The position numbers were made by a program, and so were the translations under genes. The notes below the pieces were generated by a model that worked only from the letters and a program-made list of their open reading frames with translations, made no database searches and had not been told where the DNA came from. Below are positions 7,957-33,969 of a DNA stretch of 42,729 bases, piece by piece; positions within the stretch are counted from its first letter, which is position 1, and each line of letters starts with the position of its first letter. The stretch is taken from the IMG/VR virus record IMGVR_UViG_3300002481_000002, one strand, 5' to 3'. Source of the stretch: a virus.

Positions 7957-8706
7957 ATGAATAGTTTAGATTATGCATATTTAGCAGGGGCGATAGATGG
8001 AGATGGTTATATTTTCTTAGCAAACTATTATGTAAAGGACAAAAAATATAGTTATCCAAGAGTCGAGCTAATATCATTAGATAAAGAATATTTAGAAAAA
8101 ATAGGAGAGAAATATGCTAAGTCATATAGTATAAGGAAAGGAAAAAGGTCTTGGAGATTAGCATTTGGGTTGAAGGACAGCAAGGAGATTTTATTAAAAA
8201 TAAAGGATTATAGTGTTTTAAAATGGAAAGATATCAGTGATGTGTTAAGAAATAAGAGACCAAAAAGAGAAAGAAATCCCAGTACTAAGATATGGAGTAA
8301 AATGAAAGATGTTGAGAGGCAAGCATATTTGGCGGGTATGTTAGATACAGATGGATGTATAACTATTATACGACAAGGTGAGAGGGGTTTTAGAACTGAT
8401 ATAAGAATATTTCAGAAAAATAAAGAATTTTTAGAAATGCTACACAATGAGTATGGTGGCTCTTATAATGAAATGCAATGGAGGATTCCAATAAAAGAAA
8501 TCAAACGAATGGATGTCTTCAAAAGAATGTTGATGAATGATAATAAGAGAAAAAGATTAGAAATTTCAAACAAGATAAGATTACTTGGAAAAGAGGGATT
8601 CGAAAAAAAGGTAGAATTATTTCAAGATTTTAAATTAATTAATCATAAATATAGGAGTAGTCTAATAGAAAAGTACAAAAGTGTTAACAGTTGTGGTAAA
8701 TTATAA
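7957..8706 (+). mobile_element. Free-standing double-motif LAGLIDADG homing endonuclease
   Basis: YAYLAGAIDGDG and QAYLAGMLDTDG motifs; more AT-rich than the flanks. Confidence 0.9.
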
Positions 8707-9297: not shown

Positions 9298-10443
9298 ATG
9301 AATGTGAGACCGTTAACGGTTTGGGATATAGAGGCGTTCTATAAAGGATATGCGGGACATCCGTTTCTGGATTTGGGAGATTTGATAGAGTTTGAGAAGA
9401 CGGCAGGAACTGTTAGTACTGGTATTGGTACGGCTGTGTATAACAAAGTGTATGGTGCTTATGTATGGAGTCAGTTGAACCAAGAGGCAAATGCATTTGG
9501 ACTTCTGCCAAAGACGACTTGGGTGAGAAGTGGATGGAGAGTTAAGACTGCTTTTGCAACAAGTGATGAAGATATTGGTATAACTGAGACTGGTACACTT
9601 CCAAGTGCAGTTTATCCGACAGTCACAACGGTTTATGCTACTCCAAAGACTGAAGCAATGACTTTCGAAGTTTCAGACATAACTGAGCAACTGGCAAATG
9701 TGTCAGAGGATGACATTTGGGGTAGTGCAAATCAGCTTAGAGCAGAGAGTGGTGTTGAGTTTGCAAAGAGAATAAATCAGCAATTGCTTAAGGATTGTGA
9801 TACATTGGCAAGCAACAGGCTTGAGAGTATTGATAGAGTTACTGCTTCAAGTGCATATATAACAGCAGTTGGTTATACAGCAGGAGATGAAGATATCTAC
9901 GGAATTGATAGGTCTGCAAACTCATGGGCAGATGGTACATGTCTGCATAATAGTGGTACTGATAGAGACATAACTGCAACTTTGATAAGAGATTTGCTAA
10001 GGACTTGTAAGGAAGCAGGTGCAAATACAACTGTGCTTCTTACTGGTTATGATACAATTGCAAAGATTCAGGGGCTGTATAATAACATGGTAAGGTATCT
10101 GCCAATGCAGGACGCCAAGGTTACAATGGGTCTAAATGGTATTGAGAGTGCAAAGGGTTATGATGTTGGTATAACTGTGAGTGCTGTTGAAGGGATACCG
10201 CTCATAGGGGCAGTAGATACTCCGAAAGATACTATTAGTAGATTGTATGCTCTTGATACTTCAGACCCAGAGGGATATGGTTTACCAAGACTGGCTATTT
10301 CAGTACTTAGACCATCAGAGTATTTTGAGACAAGAGACCCATTCGTCGTTGGCAAGTTTGCAATCAAGGGAGTGTATAGATTCGTTGGAGAGCTTGTGGC
10401 AAGGTTCTTGAAGGCACAGGGTAGTTTAAGAGACCTCAAGTAG
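9298..10443 (+). CDS. Major capsid protein (HK97 fold)
   Basis: 381 aa after the scaffold. YNKVYGAYVWSQLNQEANAFGLLPK resembles archaeal tailed-virus MCPs. Codon usage is distinct and C-richer, suggesting high expression. Confidence 0.85.
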   Translation: MNVRPLTVWDIEAFYKGYAGHPFLDLGDLIEFEKTAGTVSTGIGTAVYNKVYGAYVWSQLNQEANAFGLLPKTTWVRSGWRVKTAFATSDEDIGITETGTLPSAVYPTVTTVYATPKTEAMTFEVSDITEQLANVSEDDIWGSANQLRAESGVEFAKRINQQLLKDCDTLASNRLESIDRVTASSAYITAVGYTAGDEDIYGIDRSANSWADGTCLHNSGTDRDITATLIRDLLRTCKEAGANTTVLLTGYDTIAKIQGLYNNMVRYLPMQDAKVTMGLNGIESAKGYDVGITVSAVEGIPLIGAVDTPKDTISRLYALDTSDPEGYGLPRLAISVLRPSEYFETRDPFVVGKFAIKGVYRFVGELVARFLKAQGSLRDLK

Positions 10444-11497: not shown

Positions 11498-11535
11498 CAT
11501 TAAATATATATACAATGACCATACACAATATATTA

Positions 11536-12324
11536 ATGAGAGAGAAGGAGGTGGAGAAAGTGGAGGAAAGGCTCTTAGTTGAGTTTGGAGTAGAGGAGAA
11601 CATAAAGAGGAAGTATGGATATGAGGAGAAGTTGTTGAGGTTTAAGGGGGAAAGTATACCATACAAGGCGATTGTGAAGAATGGCGAGTTGAAGGCGATT
11701 GTGAGCAGAAAATATAGATTAATTACTAATGAAGAGGTAATAGATATTGTGAGGGCATGGGCAAGAAGTAGAGGATATGAGTATAATGTGGATGTGAATG
11801 GGAATAAGGTTTTTGTTTTGGTGAAGAATGAGGATATTGGTGTTTTGGTTGGAAACAGTATTGATGGGACGATGGGTTTGTTTGTAGATGCAGTGATTTA
11901 TACAAATGGAGTGCCATTGATTTTGAGAATGAGCAATGATGTGAAAGAATTGAAACAAGTGAAGAAAAAGCATTTCAGGAGTGCAGAGGGCGTGATGGAG
12001 AATTTAATGGGTATGTTGAGTGAGGTGATAGATGAGTGTAAGGAGTATAAGGCGTGGTTGAGGGACATGGGAAAGGTTAAGGTGAAGGATGTGAAGGATG
12101 ATGTAAAGGAATTGTTTAGCTTAATGCCGAAGAAGTATGTAGCAGATGTGATTAAGAGAGTCGAATATAGTTTTGATAATGGACATTTGACATTGGCACA
12201 TGTGTATGAGGATATTGCGAGAAGAATATGGAGTGCGGATACACAGATGACAACAAAGATACATTTATTTAGAGAGTTGAATGAGAATGTGATGTTTATA
12301 ATGGAGTTGGTGAGGCAAGGATGA
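11536..12324 (+). CDS. DUF932-like protein
   Basis: AIVSRKYRLITNEEVIDIV and VLVGNSIDGTMG motifs resemble DUF932. Alternative start at 11515. Confidence 0.6.
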   Translation: MREKEVEKVEERLLVEFGVEENIKRKYGYEEKLLRFKGESIPYKAIVKNGELKAIVSRKYRLITNEEVIDIVRAWARSRGYEYNVDVNGNKVFVLVKNEDIGVLVGNSIDGTMGLFVDAVIYTNGVPLILRMSNDVKELKQVKKKHFRSAEGVMENLMGMLSEVIDECKEYKAWLRDMGKVKVKDVKDDVKELFSLMPKKYVADVIKRVEYSFDNGHLTLAHVYEDIARRIWSADTQMTTKIHLFRELNENVMFIMELVRQG

Positions 12325-12443
12325 AGGGCGAGTTCAAGTTTTTTAGAATTAATGAGAATAGGTTGGAAAGTTGTTGGAATGGGTGGAATGCGAGTTACGA
12401 TGAGTTTGAGATTTTATTAAAATCATTGTATAGGGGGTGGTAG
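12321..12443 (+). CDS. Trp-rich microprotein (40 aa)
   Basis: ATGA-coupled; MKGEFKFFRINENRLESCWNGWNASYDEFEILLKSLYRGW. Confidence 0.45.
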   Translation: MKGEFKFFRINENRLESCWNGWNASYDEFEILLKSLYRGW

Positions 12444-12448
12444 TGCTG

Positions 12449-12877
12449 ATGGTTGATTTATGGAGTGTGGAAGAGTATATAGAGAAGTTTGTGAATGGAA
12501 GTGAGGGAAAGTCTAAGGAAGTGGTAGTGTTTGTGCCGAGCAGGAAGAAGGAAGAGTTGGTCTATGAAAGTGTGTTGGGAGTGTTTCCTAATGCGAAGGT
12601 GGTGTTTTTATCGAGTAAGAGGGAGGTGGCGAATTATAGTAATGAGGAAGAGGTAAATAGTGTGTATGGTGAGATGAGAGAAAAGATTGAAGAGTTTAGT
12701 GCAGAGGCAGATGTAAATGATGTGTATTTGGTAGCAAGTGGGCCGACGACAATGACATTATGGGCGTATGCTTTATTGAGAGATGAAGGATTCAATGTGA
12801 AGTTGTTGATATGGGAGAATAAGGTAGGAGGGTATGTGGTTGCAGAGCGAGAGGTGGATAGACTTAAGATATATTAA
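12449..12877 (+). CDS. CARF/SAVED/Csx3-like Rossmann-fold small protein
   Basis: VYLVASGPTTMTLWAY...KLLIWENKVGGYVVA matches the beta-GP-helix-beta-hairpin pattern of SAVED C-halves and Csx3/Crn3. Confidence 0.5.
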   Translation: MVDLWSVEEYIEKFVNGSEGKSKEVVVFVPSRKKEELVYESVLGVFPNAKVVFLSSKREVANYSNEEEVNSVYGEMREKIEEFSAEADVNDVYLVASGPTTMTLWAYALLRDEGFNVKLLIWENKVGGYVVAEREVDRLKIY

Positions 12878-13901
12878 TGGAAAAAGGAGTGGTTTGTATG
12901 TGGGGAGGAGTGGATTGCATGTTACGGAAGAGGATTTTTGTACATGTGTTGGGTTTCAGTTTAGAAAGAAATGTAGGCATGTGGAGGAGTTGAGGATGAT
13001 AGAGGTTGAGGAAATTGTAAACGGGAAGGGTGTGAGAGAATTTAAGAGTAGTTTAAGTGCAGTGAATGATTTATTTGGTGAGAGTGCGTACAATAGTGAT
13101 GAGATATTTGCATATTACGGGATGTCAAAAATTGGAAAGAGTTTATTATGTTATCAAGAGGCAATGTGGTTTGCAAGTCAAGGGTTGAATGTGCTGTACT
13201 TAGAGACAGAAGGCGGAATGAGTCAATTTATTAGAAAATGGCATGATGTGTTTGTGGCGAGGTTTGGTGAGAAGAAAGGTAAAGTGTATATGGTGAGTAA
13301 GAAGAGTATTGAGACACTAATGGAGTATTTAGGTTTTAGAGTGCAAGTAGTGTTTAAGAGTGCGGGAGGTGGTAAGAAAGAGGAGAAAGGTAAGTTAGAG
13401 TTTAAGGTGTTAGAGACGCTAAGGGATGAGGATGTGCAGATAATGAAAGATATTGCGAGTGCAAAGATTGATGTATTGATATTGGATAGTCTGAGTAGTC
13501 CGCTGAGAGTGTTTACAACGGATAGACAGAGCTTTCCAGCTAAGAGTGATTGCGCTGGGTATATTTTAAGGACATTGGCGAAGTTACAGGAGGTGTTTGG
13601 GATAGCTGTTATAGTGGTTAATCATGCGAGCCATGACCCAACGAATCCGTATGAAAGTGAGGTGCAGATGAGGGGTGGAAGTGCAGTGCAGTATTACAGC
13701 AAGCGGATAGTTTTTATTGACAGAAGGGCGAGTAAAGAGTTTAGTGATTATAGGAGGTTTTGGCTTGTGAGGGCAGAGGACATAAAGGCATGGAGCAAGG
13801 CGACGGTGGCGAAGATAACGGATTTCGGATATGAAGATGTGACAGATGAGAAAATTATTGATAGAGTGTTTACGCAAACAGAGCAGAAGAAGTTAGGGTG
13901 A
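12834..13901 (+). CDS. RecA/RadA-RadB-family ATPase with N-terminal SWIM Zn finger
   Basis: Walker A GMSKIGKS, Walker B LILDSLS, VVNHA and GGSAVQY motifs; SWIM CTC..CRH. Confidence 0.8.
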   Translation: MWLQSERWIDLRYINGKRSGLYVGRSGLHVTEEDFCTCVGFQFRKKCRHVEELRMIEVEEIVNGKGVREFKSSLSAVNDLFGESAYNSDEIFAYYGMSKIGKSLLCYQEAMWFASQGLNVLYLETEGGMSQFIRKWHDVFVARFGEKKGKVYMVSKKSIETLMEYLGFRVQVVFKSAGGGKKEEKGKLEFKVLETLRDEDVQIMKDIASAKIDVLILDSLSSPLRVFTTDRQSFPAKSDCAGYILRTLAKLQEVFGIAVIVVNHASHDPTNPYESEVQMRGGSAVQYYSKRIVFIDRRASKEFSDYRRFWLVRAEDIKAWSKATVAKITDFGYEDVTDEKIIDRVFTQTEQKKLG

Positions 13902-14722: not shown

Positions 14723-14831
14723 AGTACGAGATTTTCACTTATACTGTGAGCAAGTTGGGTTTGGACTTGCTGGTGAATGCGGATATGAATTTATGGTACA
14801 ATTGGTTTTTCAATTGGGTGAGGGGAAAGAA

Positions 14832-15713
14832 ATGAACATCAAGGAAATATTGAAATGGATGAGAGTAGATAATCCGTTTCCAAGAGAGATTGGTAAGTTG
14901 AGAAGGGTGGCGAATGATATGATAGATTTATATGATTATATTGAGTTTCAGAAAGGCATTGATTGTTATGCAAGTATATTTGCGAATTGGCAGGTTGTGA
15001 GGAGAATGTTTGATGTGGTATGGTTGGATATTGATGACCATGAAGGGCGAGGTGATTTGAATAACAAACTTGAAAGAGTTTTAGATTTATTACATGAGTA
15101 TGAGCCAAGAGTCTATTTTACTGGACGAGGGTATCATGTTTACCTTTTGATAGAGTTGACAAGGTTGGAGAGTTATAATGAGGTGGTGAGGAAGTGGGTG
15201 TGTGATATGGGATTAAAGGGATATGTGGATAGGATTGGTAATATGAGGCAGTTGGGAAGGATACCAGGTACGGTTAATGGATATGTTGGTCGAGAGGTGA
15301 TATTAATAGAGAAAGGTAAGGTGAGTAAGGAGTTAGGGAAAGAGTTGAAAGAATATGATAGTGTGACGATGGAAAGGAGTGAGAGTGAAAGTGAGAGGTT
15401 ATTTGAGAATATAAAGGATATGAGTTCAATGCCAAGGTGTGTTCAAGAGGGTGTGGAGATACTTGCAAGGACGGGAGAGTTAGAGCATGATTACAGATTG
15501 CACATAGCGGCGTTTTTATTGAGAGTATGGGATTATGAAGATGTGAAGGATGTGTTTAGGATGGCAAGTGATTTTAGAGAAGACAGGACTGACTATCAGT
15601 TAAAGTATATTCTGAGCAAGAACATAAAAGCGTTCAAGTGCAAGACGGCAATGGAGAAAGGGATTTGCATGGAAAAGTGTCCGTTTTATCCAAGTGTGAA
15701 TTTATGGGTGTGA
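14832..15713 (+). CDS. Archaeo-eukaryotic primase, PriS catalytic domain fused to a PriL-like Fe-S domain
   Basis: WLDIDD, FTGRGYHVY and RIPGT motifs, then PRCV..LEHDYR..C..C..CP. Start set at the ATGA overlap at 14832. Confidence 0.85.
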   Translation: MNIKEILKWMRVDNPFPREIGKLRRVANDMIDLYDYIEFQKGIDCYASIFANWQVVRRMFDVVWLDIDDHEGRGDLNNKLERVLDLLHEYEPRVYFTGRGYHVYLLIELTRLESYNEVVRKWVCDMGLKGYVDRIGNMRQLGRIPGTVNGYVGREVILIEKGKVSKELGKELKEYDSVTMERSESESERLFENIKDMSSMPRCVQEGVEILARTGELEHDYRLHIAAFLLRVWDYEDVKDVFRMASDFREDRTDYQLKYILSKNIKAFKCKTAMEKGICMEKCPFYPSVNLWV

Positions 15714-16034: not shown

Positions 16035-16172
16035 ATGAAAGAGATATATGATGTCTGGTATGTGTTGGGTGATGGGAGAATGTATGGAGAATTGTTTGAG
16101 CATTGGTGGATGGATATGTATGGAATAAGAGGAATGATTTACACTTTAAAATCGAAGAGAGTGATAAGATGA
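16035..16172 (+). CDS. Trp/Tyr-rich microprotein (45 aa)
   Basis: MKEIYDVWYVLGDGRMYGELFEHWWMDMYGIRGMIYTLKSKRVIR; its stop overlaps the polB ATG (ATGA). Confidence 0.45.
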   Translation: MKEIYDVWYVLGDGRMYGELFEHWWMDMYGIRGMIYTLKSKRVIR

Positions 16173-18184
16173 TATCTGGAAGAGCGTCGTACAAGGTTGA
16201 TGAAGATGGACTAAGGATAATTGGTGTGTTTGATGGTAGATATAAAGAGATATCATGTAAAGTATTACCATACGGATTTGTGAATTTAGGGGCGAGAAAA
16301 GACATAGATAGATTAAAGTATGTTGTGAGTGTCGAGGATAGTGATTTGAAGAGTATAACTGGTCAAAGAGTTATAAGGTTCGAGACTGAGAAACCAGCGC
16401 AAGTAGCGTATTTAAGAGATGATTTGGAGAAAAGAGGATATGTGACATATGAGTGTGATTTGAAGTTTATTAGACGGCTTTTAATAGATAAAGTGTTAAA
16501 AGTAAAGTATGATGGAGTTAGTTATATTGATATTGAAGTCGATGATAGTAAGGGAGTGCCGAACGAACATGGTAAGTATGAGATTTTGTGTATTGGTTTA
16601 GATGATAATTGGTTATGGCGAGGGGATTATGATACTGAGCAAGAAATGTTAAGAGATTTTATTGATTTATTGGAGAAAGAGAGGATTGGTGTGTTGGCGG
16701 GATGGAATGTTGAATTTGACTACTATCATTTATTAAAGAGATGTGAGTATTTGGGTGTGAGTTATGGGCGGTTAGCATTTACTGAGAAAATTGATATTTT
16801 GAATAGGTACAGGTTTGCGATTAAGGGATTAGAGTCATATAGTTTGGATGAAGTGGCTAAGCATGAGGGAATAGGAGGAAAGGTAAGTATTAAAAAGAAA
16901 GTGAGTGAGATGAGTAAGGATGAACTGTTTAAGTATAATATGAGAGATGTTGAGTTGGTAAGGGAGATTGATGAGAGGTATGGATTTAGTGAGGTGAGAT
17001 TGGAGTTGGCAAATTATTGTAACTTATTGTTAGAGATGTGTACACCGATTCAGTTGGCTGATACTTTAGTGTTAAGGAGGTTGAGAGAGTTAGGATATGT
17101 TGCGCCGAATGTGAAAGTTGTAGAGAAAAGAGATTATATCGGTGCGTTTGTAGATGCAAGGAGATTTGGAGTTGTTGATAATATAGTGTATTTAGATTTT
17201 GTTGCGCTGTATCCGAACATAATTGTCAATGAGAATATAGATATAGATGGTTTTAATGGTGAAGTGTATCCACACATAGTGAAGAAGCTAATGGAGCAGA
17301 GGGAGAGACATAGAAGAAAGTGGAAAGAGACAGGAGATAAGAAAGAAAAGACAATGCAAGAGATGTTAAAACCAGTCATAAACTCATTCTATGGAAGTCT
17401 TGGGAATTCGTACTTTAGGTGGTGTGATTTTGATAAGGCAGAGAGGGTTACTTTAAAAGGAAGGGAGATAATACAGAAAGCAGATAAGTTTTTACAGGAA
17501 AATGGTTTTGAGGTTGTGTATCTTGATACGGATGGTATGATGGTAAGTGTGGGTGAGAGTGTTAATGAGGTGGTTGCGGAGAGTTTGGCAAAGTTATTGA
17601 ATAGTTATATTAAGCCATACAAAGTAAAGGTTGAGGAGGTGATTGAAAAGATGATTTTCTTTAAGAGTGGTGATAGTGCGGCTAAGAAGAGATATTGGGG
17701 AAGGACTATTGATGGTAGAGAGATAATAAGAGGTGTTGAGGTTAGGCGCGGTGATTGGTGTAGATTGGCTAAGGATGTGCAGAGGGATTTGATAAATATG
17801 ATTTTTAATGAAGCGAGTGATAGTGAATTGTTAAAGTATTTGTCTAATGTTAGGAAAGATTTATATAATGGAAAGTATGATAGTAAGTTGGTGATAGTGA
17901 AAGGATTTAAGAAAAAAGATGAGTATAAGAATTTGAACTTGCCACATTTGAGAGCTTTGGCGAAGGCGAGAGATGCTTTTATTGACGGGAAGGTGAGGTT
18001 TGTGTATGCAAATGGAGATGTAGAGCCAGTGGTTAATGAGAGTGATTTGAAGAGGTATAGGATAGATTACGACTATTACTGGAAAGGGCAGGTGGTTGCA
18101 GTGGCAAGTAGAATTTTTGAGAGTATAGGTGTGGATGGTGTTATTACTGGTAATGGTGTGTATAGGCAGGTGAAATTATGTTAG
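16169..18184 (+). CDS. polB: Family B DNA polymerase with 3'-5' exonuclease
   Basis: Exo motifs YIDIE, GWNVEFD and YNMRD; Pol motifs DFVALYPNII, KPVINSFYG and YLDTDG. Confidence 0.95.
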   Translation: MISGRASYKVDEDGLRIIGVFDGRYKEISCKVLPYGFVNLGARKDIDRLKYVVSVEDSDLKSITGQRVIRFETEKPAQVAYLRDDLEKRGYVTYECDLKFIRRLLIDKVLKVKYDGVSYIDIEVDDSKGVPNEHGKYEILCIGLDDNWLWRGDYDTEQEMLRDFIDLLEKERIGVLAGWNVEFDYYHLLKRCEYLGVSYGRLAFTEKIDILNRYRFAIKGLESYSLDEVAKHEGIGGKVSIKKKVSEMSKDELFKYNMRDVELVREIDERYGFSEVRLELANYCNLLLEMCTPIQLADTLVLRRLRELGYVAPNVKVVEKRDYIGAFVDARRFGVVDNIVYLDFVALYPNIIVNENIDIDGFNGEVYPHIVKKLMEQRERHRRKWKETGDKKEKTMQEMLKPVINSFYGSLGNSYFRWCDFDKAERVTLKGREIIQKADKFLQENGFEVVYLDTDGMMVSVGESVNEVVAESLAKLLNSYIKPYKVKVEEVIEKMIFFKSGDSAAKKRYWGRTIDGREIIRGVEVRRGDWCRLAKDVQRDLINMIFNEASDSELLKYLSNVRKDLYNGKYDSKLVIVKGFKKKDEYKNLNLPHLRALAKARDAFIDGKVRFVYANGDVEPVVNESDLKRYRIDYDYYWKGQVVAVASRIFESIGVDGVITGNGVYRQVKLC

Positions 18185-31144: not shown

Positions 31145-33969
31145 ATGCAGAGTAGAAAGGAGAGATATGAGATAAGAGAATATGAGTATGGTAAGGTGCT
31201 GGTAAGGAATGGTATACATGTTCTTTTTGATGAGATAAAGGAGGACGAGTATTCGTGGATTTTCTACAAAGGTAATGAGATGATAGCGGTCTTATCGAAA
31301 TTAAGTTGTAGATTGGTTGAGAGGTTGGAAAGATGAAGAAGTGGAGGTGTAGTGATGTTTGCGAAAATAAAGGTGTATGGTAAGTTTTGGGATGTCGGGG
31401 CAAAGGAAGTTCTTTATCATTGTTATGGCGGCAAGTGGTATGAGAATTGGGAGTGGGATGCTATAGTATGGAGGGTGGACGATGTTGATAGGTGTGTACG
31501 AAGAGTATGAAGTGATAAATGGCGTTGTATGGATAACTGGGAGGTTTAGTAGTTACAGATTTTATGGTAATGGTATGAGTAGAATAAAAGGTTTAATTAA
31601 ATTGAATTATAGAGAATTATTAGAGCTTTTAAAGTGGTGAGGGAAATGTATATGTTTGTGCAATTGAGTTTGGATAGAGAGGTTGAAGAGAAAGTTAGAA
31701 AAGAGATTGAGAACTGGGTGTGGGAAATAGTAATGGATTATATGAGATTCGATACGAATGAAATGCGTTGGAAAATGACATATGAAGCGATAAATGAAGT
31801 ATTGGCATTAAAGCATCGACAATATTTACTAATGAAATGGTGAGAAGAGATGAGAGTTGGGATTGTAGTGTTGGCGAGTGATAGAGAATGTGTTGATATG
31901 TTGGGGAGGTGGTGGGATTTTATTGGAATGGGATGGCAGACTTGGAGACTTCAGAATGTCAAGAGTTACAAGGAGTTGGTGGGCGAATTGGTTAACACTT
32001 ATCTTTTAATAGAGAGAGTTTATGAGCTGGAGGAAGAGAGAAAAAGAATTGAAGAGAAGATGAAAGTATTAGAGAGGTGGAAGTGAGAGGGAGGTGGATG
32101 ATGTATATGGAGTTGGATGTGTGGGGCGAGTGTAATGATATTATATCTTTAATAGGTTTTTGTCTTAACAGATATAGTGAGTTGGTTAATGATTTGGTGA
32201 GTGTGATGAGAAATGTTAAGTATGACGAGAGTGGGCGGTGTATGTGGGTGAGGATATGAAAGAGGTTATTTATATTTTTACTAAATGTGGAAGGTGCGGT
32301 AAGTTGATAGTGAAAAAGGTTTATGATTTTAGTAGTGAAGAGTTACGGGCGATGGCAAGAGTTTTTAAAAGAGTAGAGAGTAAGTGTCAGAGAGAAATTG
32401 GAGTGGTTTGGAAGGTGGTGTGAGATGAAAGTAATGGATGTATTGAGTGTTTACGGAACTATTTGACATATGGTGCAGTACAAAACCAAAAGATTTATAT
32501 ACCATGAGTGTCATACAATATATTAGAGAAAAAGTAAGGAGGCGAACAAAAATGGAGGAGATAAGAAAAGTGAGATGGGATGGGGATGGTGCGGTAGTAT
32601 ATAATTGTTTTATACCAGATTATACTTGGCATCCAAAGTTAGAAGTTTGGTTGAAAGAGAAGGTAGAGATAAGTTGTGCAGCGTGTTTGAGAAGGGGTAA
32701 GTGTCCAGTAATAGGAAAGTAAGGAGGTAAGTAAAATGATAACATGTAAGGAATGTAACGGGGCGGTTGAAGTGGTTGATGTAGTAGAGGGCAAGAGGAT
32801 TTATGAGAAGTATAAATGTGCGGAGTGCGGATATGAGTTTTACGAGATTTATAAAGGAGGTAGTGGAAATGTATGGAAGTGAAGTTTGGCTGAAAAGTAT
32901 TGTGGTTGAGAAGTGTAAAGGAGATTGTGAACAATGTGTAGTGTGTATACCAAATATATTGTAATGGAGGAATGTGTGATGAAAATTGAAGTCGGGAGTG
33001 AGGGTGTTAGGATTTGGAAGGTTAGAGGTGGTAGGATACAAGAGATATCGATAGCGTACAATGCTAACAGAGCAATGATATACAAAGATGGTCTTGAGAT
33101 AGGTTTACTTACCAGCGGAGAGTTCTATACAGACGATGAGTTTAGGATTGATTACAATGGATTGAAGGAAGGGTTGGTTAGAATTTACATTTCGTAATTT
33201 ATTTTATAAAGGAGGTGGAGAGGTATGATGTGGGTAGAGATAAGATATAGAGATGGTAGGAAGGAAATGTTGTATGGTTGTGGTTTGAGTGTTAGAGGTG
33301 GTGAGTGATGAAGAGAATAGTAGTTGAGCCAGATTCAGATGGAGTAATTGGATATGTGAGTGGCACATATTATCTTGAGCATGGCGAGGTTGAGATTGAA
33401 GAATTTCCAGTACACAAGTGTGATGTAAGTGGCGAGGAGATGTGGGCGTATGAATGTGGGTGGTGTGGTAATGAGTTTGTGAGCAAGGAGAGTGCAGAGT
33501 ATTGTCCGGCGTGTGGTGGAAAGGGTATTGTTCTGTTGGGATAGGAGGTGATAGAGAATGGTAAGACTAAGAGTCAGTTGCGGAAAAACTTTCGGATTCA
33601 TTGGAGAGTATGAAGACTGGGAAGATGGAAGTATAACGCACCCTTGTATAATCTGCGGGGAGTGTGGGGAGGAGTTAAAAGAGGTTGTAGAAATTAATTG
33701 ATTTTTTTATTTTAATGAATGGTTGGTGATAGTGAATGAAAATAATATGTCCAAGGTGCAGAGAAGAAGGGAGTTTAAATTGGTCAAGTAGAAAGCACAG
33801 GCGGATAGTGATAGTACACAAGAACGGATATGGATACAGAAAATGCCACTTTGGTTATACTAATTTAGAATGGAGTGAGTTGTATAGGATGTTGCGAGAA
33901 GAGGAGGAGAGGAGAAAGGGAGAGCAAAGTAAATTATTTGAATTATTAGAGGTGATTGAGAAATGTTAA
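31145..33969 (+). other. Array of small hypothetical ORFs (31145..31336, 31634..31843, 31850..32086, 32077..32259, 32238..32423, 32447..32722, 32934..33197, 33305..33544, 33736..33969), several with CxxC Zn ribbons
   Basis: ORF track plus RBSs; CGRC, CAAC, CGWC..CPAC and CPRC..H..C motifs. Confidence 0.55.
33702..33713 (+). terminator. Oligo-T terminator candidate
   Basis: TTTTTTTATTTT just after a stop codon. Confidence 0.5.

Follow-up and report, generated by a model that had tools for sequence, protein, structure and literature searches.

A predicted single-lobe SAVED-type protein in the replication module of an archaeal tailed virus, distantly related to the phage Pam3_gp32 family

The window analysed here, the 42,729-nucleotide (nt) IMG/VR virus record IMGVR_UViG_3300002481_000002, encodes at positions 12449-12877 a protein of 142 amino acids (aa), P0001, which a first-pass annotation had proposed to be a cyclic-oligonucleotide sponge or ring nuclease on account of a likeness to CARF, SAVED and Csx3 proteins. 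We find that the gene is real and conserved, that its product is predicted to fold as a single SAVED lobe, and that it is linked by profile-level homology to the Pam3_gp32-like proteins of bacteriophages (Pfam PF23992). As to function, we tentatively prefer the reading that P0001 is a non-enzymatic accessory protein that binds a ligand and serves the replication/recombination module in which the gene resides.

The gene and the predicted fold of its product

The gene and the conserved part of its product are delimited as follows:

12449..12877, + strand: P0001 gene, predicted single-lobe SAVED/Csx15-type protein of the archaeal-virus branch of the Pam3_gp32-like superfamily (open reading frame (ORF), homologues, AlphaFold2 models, fold searches, hhalign)
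12521..12877, + strand: conserved core domain, residues 25-142, ordered b1-a1-b2-a2-b3-a3-b4-b5 hairpin(-b6) (family alignments, model secondary structure)

The ORF runs on the plus strand from the ATG at 12449 to the TAA at 12875-12877, and further in-frame starts are found at GTG 12437, GTG 12443 and GTG 12521 (V25); public gene calls begin at GTG 12443, giving a product of 144 aa. Residues 1-24 are absent from the relatives and are modelled with a predicted local distance difference test (pLDDT) score of about 55; because those relatives begin at the first core strand and this segment folds poorly, GTG 12521 is a possible start. Contigs from six samples encode an identical protein. Among 1.8 billion representative proteins searched, only three diverged relatives (121-130 aa) were recovered, and the homologues, P0004-P0006 plus a fifth lineage recovered from loci with related capsid genes (L020:4796-5218), form a family with pairwise identities of 28-37% that holds the same syntenic position in four virus lineages besides that of the window. 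No cellular homologue emerged from a search of genome contigs, no relative beyond these lineages from metagenome contigs and IMG/VR, and no homologue linked to clustered regularly interspaced short palindromic repeats (CRISPR) was found; fused or longer forms (250-2000 aa) were likewise not found, which is weak evidence. Two candidates were rejected, namely P0003 (3347 aa, 21 short stretches), set aside as a probable repetitive, Glu-rich match, and Orf10 of Weissella phage PWc (tblastn E 5), which is unrelated (hhalign probability 1.2%, no PF23992 match).

The SAVED/CARF-like fold anticipated by the first-pass annotation is reproduced in two AlphaFold2 models, each with a different family member as target: P0001 (pLDDT 80, predicted template modelling score (pTM) 0.75) and P0006 (pLDDT 86, pTM 0.79). 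The two strings on which that expectation was based are present in P0001, VYLVASGP as residues 92-99 and KLLIWENKVGGYVV as residues 118-131, and the protein is a stand-alone one with no effector domain, consisting of a single domain by both Pfam search and AlphaFold2 model. In structural searches of the whole PDB, SAVED or CARF chains occupy the first eight rows in one and the first 13 in another, and a second look found them in 47 of the top 50 rows; in both models these chains cover nearly the whole domain at 2.3-3.5 Å. The models comprise one lobe of about 118 residues, and the best rows align only one lobe of Cap5 (residues 268-380). They possess the lobe fold of SAVED, that is, three beta-alpha units followed by a beta-hairpin, an arrangement common to Csx15 and the SAVED lobe (PMC13148439), and lack both the two fused CARF-like lobes of the SAVED pseudo-dimer and the canonical CARF core, which has six strands and four beta-alpha units before the hairpin where the P0001 core has three. 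The predicted fold is that of one SAVED lobe of the Csx15 type: a CARF-like Rossmann fold without one beta-alpha unit and with a terminal beta-hairpin. The likeness to Csx3/Crn3 that had also been suggested finds no support, with no Csx3 chain among the matches listed (50 rows from each of three VIA searches, and the Foldseek lists). Nor does a Csx15 chain appear in the fold lists, though the PDB copy, which extends to 2026-04-08, predates the Csx15 paper and its entries may be absent from it.

At the level of sequence, the Pfam SAVED model (PF18145, gathering cut-off 26.2 bits) matches P0001 weakly and below that cut-off (13.4 bits, E 0.066) and matches no other member, while the Csx1 model TIGR01897 gives E 0.0032 in one member; all members fall short of the threshold in every CARF, SAVED and Csx15 model. 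The NCBIfam model for Csx15 (NF040560) matched none of four archaeal-virus and five phage members at E up to 10, with the proviso that the HMMER filters may hide very weak matches. The claim that P0001 is unrelated to the viral ring nuclease AcrIII-1 is supported, as no match to Pfam DUF1874 was seen at E up to 1-10.

P0001 is also devoid of His, as had been remarked, and further lacks Gln and Cys. From the missing His it had been argued that metal-dependent chemistry is unlikely. This argument fails: because the coding strand has only 7.8% C and His is scarce throughout the proteome, its absence is uninformative on chemistry, and with His at 1.15% of the window's proteins the probability of a 142-aa protein without any is about 0.2. 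The bias extends over the whole window (1-42729), the plus strand of which is extremely cytosine-poor (C 7.8% versus G 30.5%), with a GC skew of 0.42-0.71 in every 2-kb window and all long ORFs on the plus strand; Gln (1.9%) and Pro (2.0%) are therefore rare in the proteome along with His.

Kinship with PF23992 and the company of DNA motors

PF23992 (Pam3_gp32) is the best Pfam match for four of the five family members (E 3e-4 to 0.08). None of them attains its gathering cut-off of 27 bits: P0001 scores 18.6 bits (E 0.0019), the others 13.3-21.2, and one member has no match. Profile comparison recovers the relationship more firmly. Against a reference set of five bona fide phage proteins, each matching PF23992 (best E 1.7e-38), the archaeal-virus family aligns by hhalign with a probability of 93.1% (E 3.2e-7) over 62 columns, spanning a2-b3-Gly loop-a3-b4-hairpin; against Pam3 gp32 alone the values are 54% and E 1.3e-4. 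A protein-language-model search placed P0006 nearest to PF23992 clusters (score 0.88, 197 shared features). Given this profile-level homology to the phage members, we consider the P0001 family a distant archaeal-virus branch of a Pam3_gp32-like superfamily, a placement consistent with the structure matches in BFVD to small phage proteins (110-132 aa) and to a 123-aa protein of an 'uncultured archaeal virus'; the best BFVD match, A0A1S5Y369 (E 6e-7), is likewise from an 'uncultured archaeal virus' and may derive from the virus JdFR1000234 (KY229235). PF23992 gave no match in 14 control genomes or in phage PWc, and neither its Pfam entry name nor the literature searched gives it a function.

The two groups, the phage one exemplified by gp32 of Pseudanabaena phage Pam3 and gp03 of Pseudomonas phage LKO4, share a length of 110-140 aa and a motif block, (D)xYLhhxGxP/S...hxLLxW/Y-x-x-K-x-G-x-Y-h, laid over b3-Gly loop-a3-b4-hairpin, and both adjoin a DNA motor ATPase in a replication module. 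They differ in that the archaeal-virus family falls below the PF23992 cut-off (13-21 versus 27 bits) and cannot be aligned in its N-terminal half, in infecting Archaea rather than Bacteria, and in the motor itself, which is a RadA-like ATPase downstream in the archaeal viruses and an SNF2 helicase upstream in the phages.

A gp32-like homologue is present in 114 phage records. In Pam3, gp32 and the stop codon of gp31, the gene for the SNF2 helicase, overlap, and gp33 (DUF7307) and gp34 (PF23977) follow; this cassette, SNF2-gp32-gp33-gp34, recurs whole or in part in phages of Pseudomonas (LKO4), Acinetobacter (JeffCo), Ralstonia and Brevundimonas, with the helicase directly upstream of the gp32-like gene in four of the five phage contexts read. 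The cassette loci, L101:4142-7502 (Pam3), L102:840-4481 (LKO4), L104:1285-5612 (JeffCo) and L105:3486-5170, come from hosts that range from cyanobacteria to Pseudomonas and Acinetobacter, and its three small proteins, resembling gp32, gp33 and gp34, have no assigned function.

In the window, the neighbours of the P0001 gene are the following:

11515..12324, + strand: weakly DUF932-like gene, 269 aa, upstream (Pfam DUF932 E 0.0047; synteny)
12321..12443, + strand: 40-aa ORF between the DUF932-like gene and P0001, of uncertain status (ORF list; called on public contigs of the same virus)
12834..13901, + strand: ATPase with an N-terminal SWIM-type zinc finger and a RecA/RadA-like (AAA_25) core (Pfam AAA_25 E 3.7e-8, Rad51 1.6e-4, SWIM 0.088)
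14793..15713, + strand: primase, PriL-like C-terminal domain (Pfam DNA_primase_lrg E 3.2e-7; syntenic in relatives)
16103..18184, + strand: family B DNA polymerase (PolB) of the same replication module (Pfam DNA_pol_B E 1.9e-37; PHROG 262 E 2.7e-64)

In all five archaeal-virus lineages the P0001-type gene lies directly upstream of the SWIM and RadA-like ATPase, followed by the PriL-like primase and PolB. As called, the ATPase gene shares its first 44 nt with the end of the P0001 gene, with overlaps of 56-59 nt in L010 and L020, so that the pair overlaps by 44-59 nt in three lineages; in the other two it is 3 nt apart. In the window, an AGGAG motif at about 12885-12889 precedes the in-frame alternative ATPase starts TTG 12894 and GTG 12900, and the true start may therefore fall just past the P0001 stop. 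The ATPase also matches the UvsX-like and helicase families of PHROGs, and its nearest PDB sequences are RadA, DMC1 and UvsX. Its homologues in L006 (8370-10421) and L011 (4136-6193) carry an intein of about 330 aa (Hom_end/LAGLIDADG), inserted just after a conserved 'HA' motif, which the window copy lacks.

The upstream side is less constant. The DUF932-like gene is kept in three lineages and absent from that position in L020, where the upstream genes are different, yet the P0001-type gene is still paired with the ATPase. We rejected the idea that this DUF932-like gene is the counterpart of phage gp34 (PF23977; hhalign 0.4%); since the two are unrelated, the whole phage cassette is not conserved in the archaeal virus, and the archaeal-virus branch has neither gp33-like nor gp34-like partners. 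The feature common to the two branches is the pairing of the small protein with a neighbouring DNA motor within a replication/recombination module, rather than the cassette in its entirety. With identities of about 35%, the P0001 family is as conserved as the other module genes (PolB 40-41%, primase 38-40%, Cas4 36%), unlike the small ORFs just downstream of the ATPase gene, which have no counterpart in the related genomes compared; hence, the P0001-type gene is a core gene of this virus group. The 'early unit' in which the gene had been placed could not be confirmed; the run of co-directional genes that holds P0001 passes without a break, at spacings of 0-50 nt, from capsid and adaptor genes to replication genes.

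Among the products of the window are an HK97-type (SU10-like) major capsid protein, a head-tail adaptor, the PriL-like primase, a family B DNA polymerase and a RecA-superfamily ATPase; public contigs of the same virus, about 48.1 kb long, further carry Cas4, an ERCC4 nuclease and genes for 7-deazaguanine synthesis. This uncultured archaeal tailed virus has replication genes of archaeal type. Its sequence is found in subsurface and marine metagenomes, and a related virus with PriL and PolB genes is on record from oceanic basement fluids of 60-65 °C (PMC5340873); it has no cultured relative, the best PolB identity to isolated phages being 23-24%. For the major capsid protein (window 9298-10443), IMG/VR contains over 570 relatives, with identities of 38-56%, and among the 80 capsid loci kept (L020-L099, 6-kb flanks) only the nearest, L020 (56%), has a P0001-like gene and a RadA-like ATPase; the head genes are far more widespread than the replication module to which P0001 belongs.

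Elsewhere in the window, free-standing LAGLIDADG-type homing endonuclease ORFs lie between core genes at 7957-8706 and 21625-22323 (Pfam marks, identical public contigs). The region 20984-26219, found also in L001 and L010, holds a 7-deazaguanine pathway (radical SAM QueE-like and PTPS/QueD, with GTP cyclohydrolase I in relatives), which suggests a modified guanine in the virion DNA. A variable small-ORF cluster lies at about 28.6-34.5 kb, away from the P0001 gene; its small ORFs match no known anti-defence family. One of them, of 79 aa (33305-33544), has a zinc-ribbon match (DUF7129, E 4e-5), and the nine others tested from that region have no Pfam match.

Accessory factor or cyclic-oligonucleotide binder

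Alignments of the archaeal-virus members show P30, F46, Y63, E86, Y93, G98, L120, E123, K125, Y129 and V130 to be invariant. By secondary-structure order, P30 ends b1, at the 'motif I' position, Y63 falls in the b2-a2 loop and G98 in the b3-a3 loop, and E123 and K125 end b4 and begin the hairpin. From this topology, P30, Y63, G98, E123 and K125 would lie on the 'crown' at the C-terminal ends of the strands or on the hairpin, an element that serves stacking and phosphate contacts in Csx15. The residue following the invariant Pro after b1 is S, C or K, and in the loop that succeeds b3 Gly alone is retained; the wider superfamily preserves only this Gly, an aromatic position closing b4 and the Tyr of the hairpin. 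Neither the motif I Ser/Thr after strand 1 nor the catalytic motif II Lys of Crn1 is conserved in the family, and the archaeal-virus and phage alignments contain no conserved His or Arg and no His/Ser/Arg cluster. The invariants thus reproduce none of the Ser, His, Lys and Arg sets of Crn1, AcrIII-2 and Csx15, the last comprising S9, H11, H82, R116, R120 and R123, with H13/H90 in CliCsx15 (PMC13148439). This pattern of conservation argues for binding rather than catalysis.

On the reading that we tentatively prefer, P0001 would be produced jointly with the DNA motor ATPase next to it (the SWIM and RadA-like protein here, the SNF2 helicase in bacteriophages) and would probably be dimeric. The loop crown and hairpin of the dimer may bind either the motor or a ligand bearing phosphate, such as a nucleotide or the end of a nucleic acid, and this binding would help to load or regulate the motor during recombination-dependent replication. 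The gene, its fold, its kinship with PF23992 and its conserved neighbourhood are observed; that the protein dimerises, what kind of ligand it takes and that it works with the motor are inferences. A predicted complex of P0001 with the ATPase scored 0.28 against a mark of 0.32, with controls not run, and counts neither way. The genomic context is suggestive, not decisive, because anti-defence genes, Gam for one, also occur in recombination modules and compact genomes commonly have overlapping genes.

As to the sponge, or slow ring nuclease, originally envisaged as countering type III CRISPR or the cyclic oligonucleotide-based antiphage signaling system (CBASS), we regard it as possible, if doubtful. 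Single lobes would pair into a SAVED-like dimer and stack head-to-tail, as in Csx15 and AcrIII-2, around cyclic tetra- or hexa-adenylate (cA4/cA6) or a CBASS signal, withholding it from host effectors; in its favour, this class of fold is known only from cyclic-nucleotide recognition, and its viral stand-alone versions are known or proposed anti-CRISPRs. However, the family remains below the SAVED threshold and matches neither the Csx15 model NF040560 nor the CARF models, and it conserves neither the catalytic nor the phosphate-binding residues known from Crn1, Csx15 and AcrIII-2. Moreover, in the archaeal-virus branch and the phage branch alike, the gene has a fixed place in the core of the replication module, outside the variable small-ORF region, and no homologue was found in cells or next to genes of CRISPR or CBASS systems, in contrast to AcrIII-2, which shares 53% identity with a host CalpL (PMC12751052).

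A broader proposition, which we hold to be rather unlikely, is that PF23992 and the archaeal-virus branch together constitute ancient single-lobe SAVED/Csx15-like cyclic-nucleotide binders lodged in replication operons. As CBASS or type III sponges they would be widespread, hitherto unrecognised and present in over 100 sequenced phages; as nucleotide-gated switches of the helicase or recombinase they would tune the motor to a host alarm signal.

Finally, it is improbable that the likeness to SAVED reflects a convergent or very ancient Rossmann-type scaffold of unrelated function, such as a nucleoside 2-deoxyribosyltransferase/SLOG-like helper in nucleotide metabolism or DNA modification, a degenerate TOPRIM-type domain or a structural adaptor, since SAVED and CARF chains outrank all of these alternatives in both models, the family lacks the TOPRIM signature of a Glu after b1 and DxD after b3, and the gene adjoins modification genes in neither the archaeal virus nor Pam3.

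Comparison with known cyclic-nucleotide systems

Stand-alone CARF, SAVED and Csx15 proteins form the newest class of viral counter-defence, AcrIII-2 dating from 2025. Stand-alone single-lobe SAVED/Csx15-like proteins as such are already known (PMC13148439; bioRxiv 10.64898/2026.10.26.761840); the link of PF23992 to this fold, the extension of the family to archaeal viruses and its constant association with DNA motors appear to be new. The single-lobe SAVED fold is now linked to a Pfam family that is uncharacterised and occurs in 114 sequenced phages as well as in archaeal tailed viruses. Should the family bind cyclic nucleotides, it would constitute a large new family of sponges that includes cultivable Pseudomonas phages; if not, it would be the first use of a 'cyclic-oligonucleotide recognition fold' in viral DNA replication or recombination, with a bearing on the origin of the CARF/SAVED fold.

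With Csx3/Crn3 and AcrIII-1 (DUF1874), P0001 has in common only the proposed role, the removal of cA4, and no structural or sequence match was obtained. The SAVED proteins Cap5, Cap4, Cap14, SAVED-CHAT and CalpL join two fused lobes to an effector, whereas P0001 is one lobe with no effector and its sequence similarity to them is not significant. Canonical CARF proteins of the Crn1 group (Sso2081, Sso1393, Sis0811) have one more beta-alpha unit and a C-terminal domain like a winged helix-turn-helix (wHTH), besides the motif I Ser and catalytic Lys that the P0001 family does not conserve. AcrIII-2/vSAVED (PDB 9r8s) is a two-lobe SAVED protein of about 235 aa with a catalytic His, in contrast to the single lobe of the P0001 family and its want of a conserved His; it is, further, a viral ring nuclease recently captured from host CalpL, with 53% identity (PMC12751052), and no cellular relative of the P0001 family was found. 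Csx15 and its viral form vCsx15 differ from P0001 in their motif I Ser/His, second His and Arg cluster, none of which P0001 has, and P0001 is not linked to CRISPR or CBASS. They resemble it in standing alone, in a length of about 120-130 aa and in having one lobe with a sheet of five strands and a C-terminal hairpin. Csx15 has a CARF-like topology lacking one beta-alpha unit (PMC13148439; bioRxiv 10.64898/2026.10.26.761840), and its viral form was proposed in October 2026 as the anti-CRISPR 'AcrIII-3' (bioRxiv 10.64898/2026.10.26.761840).
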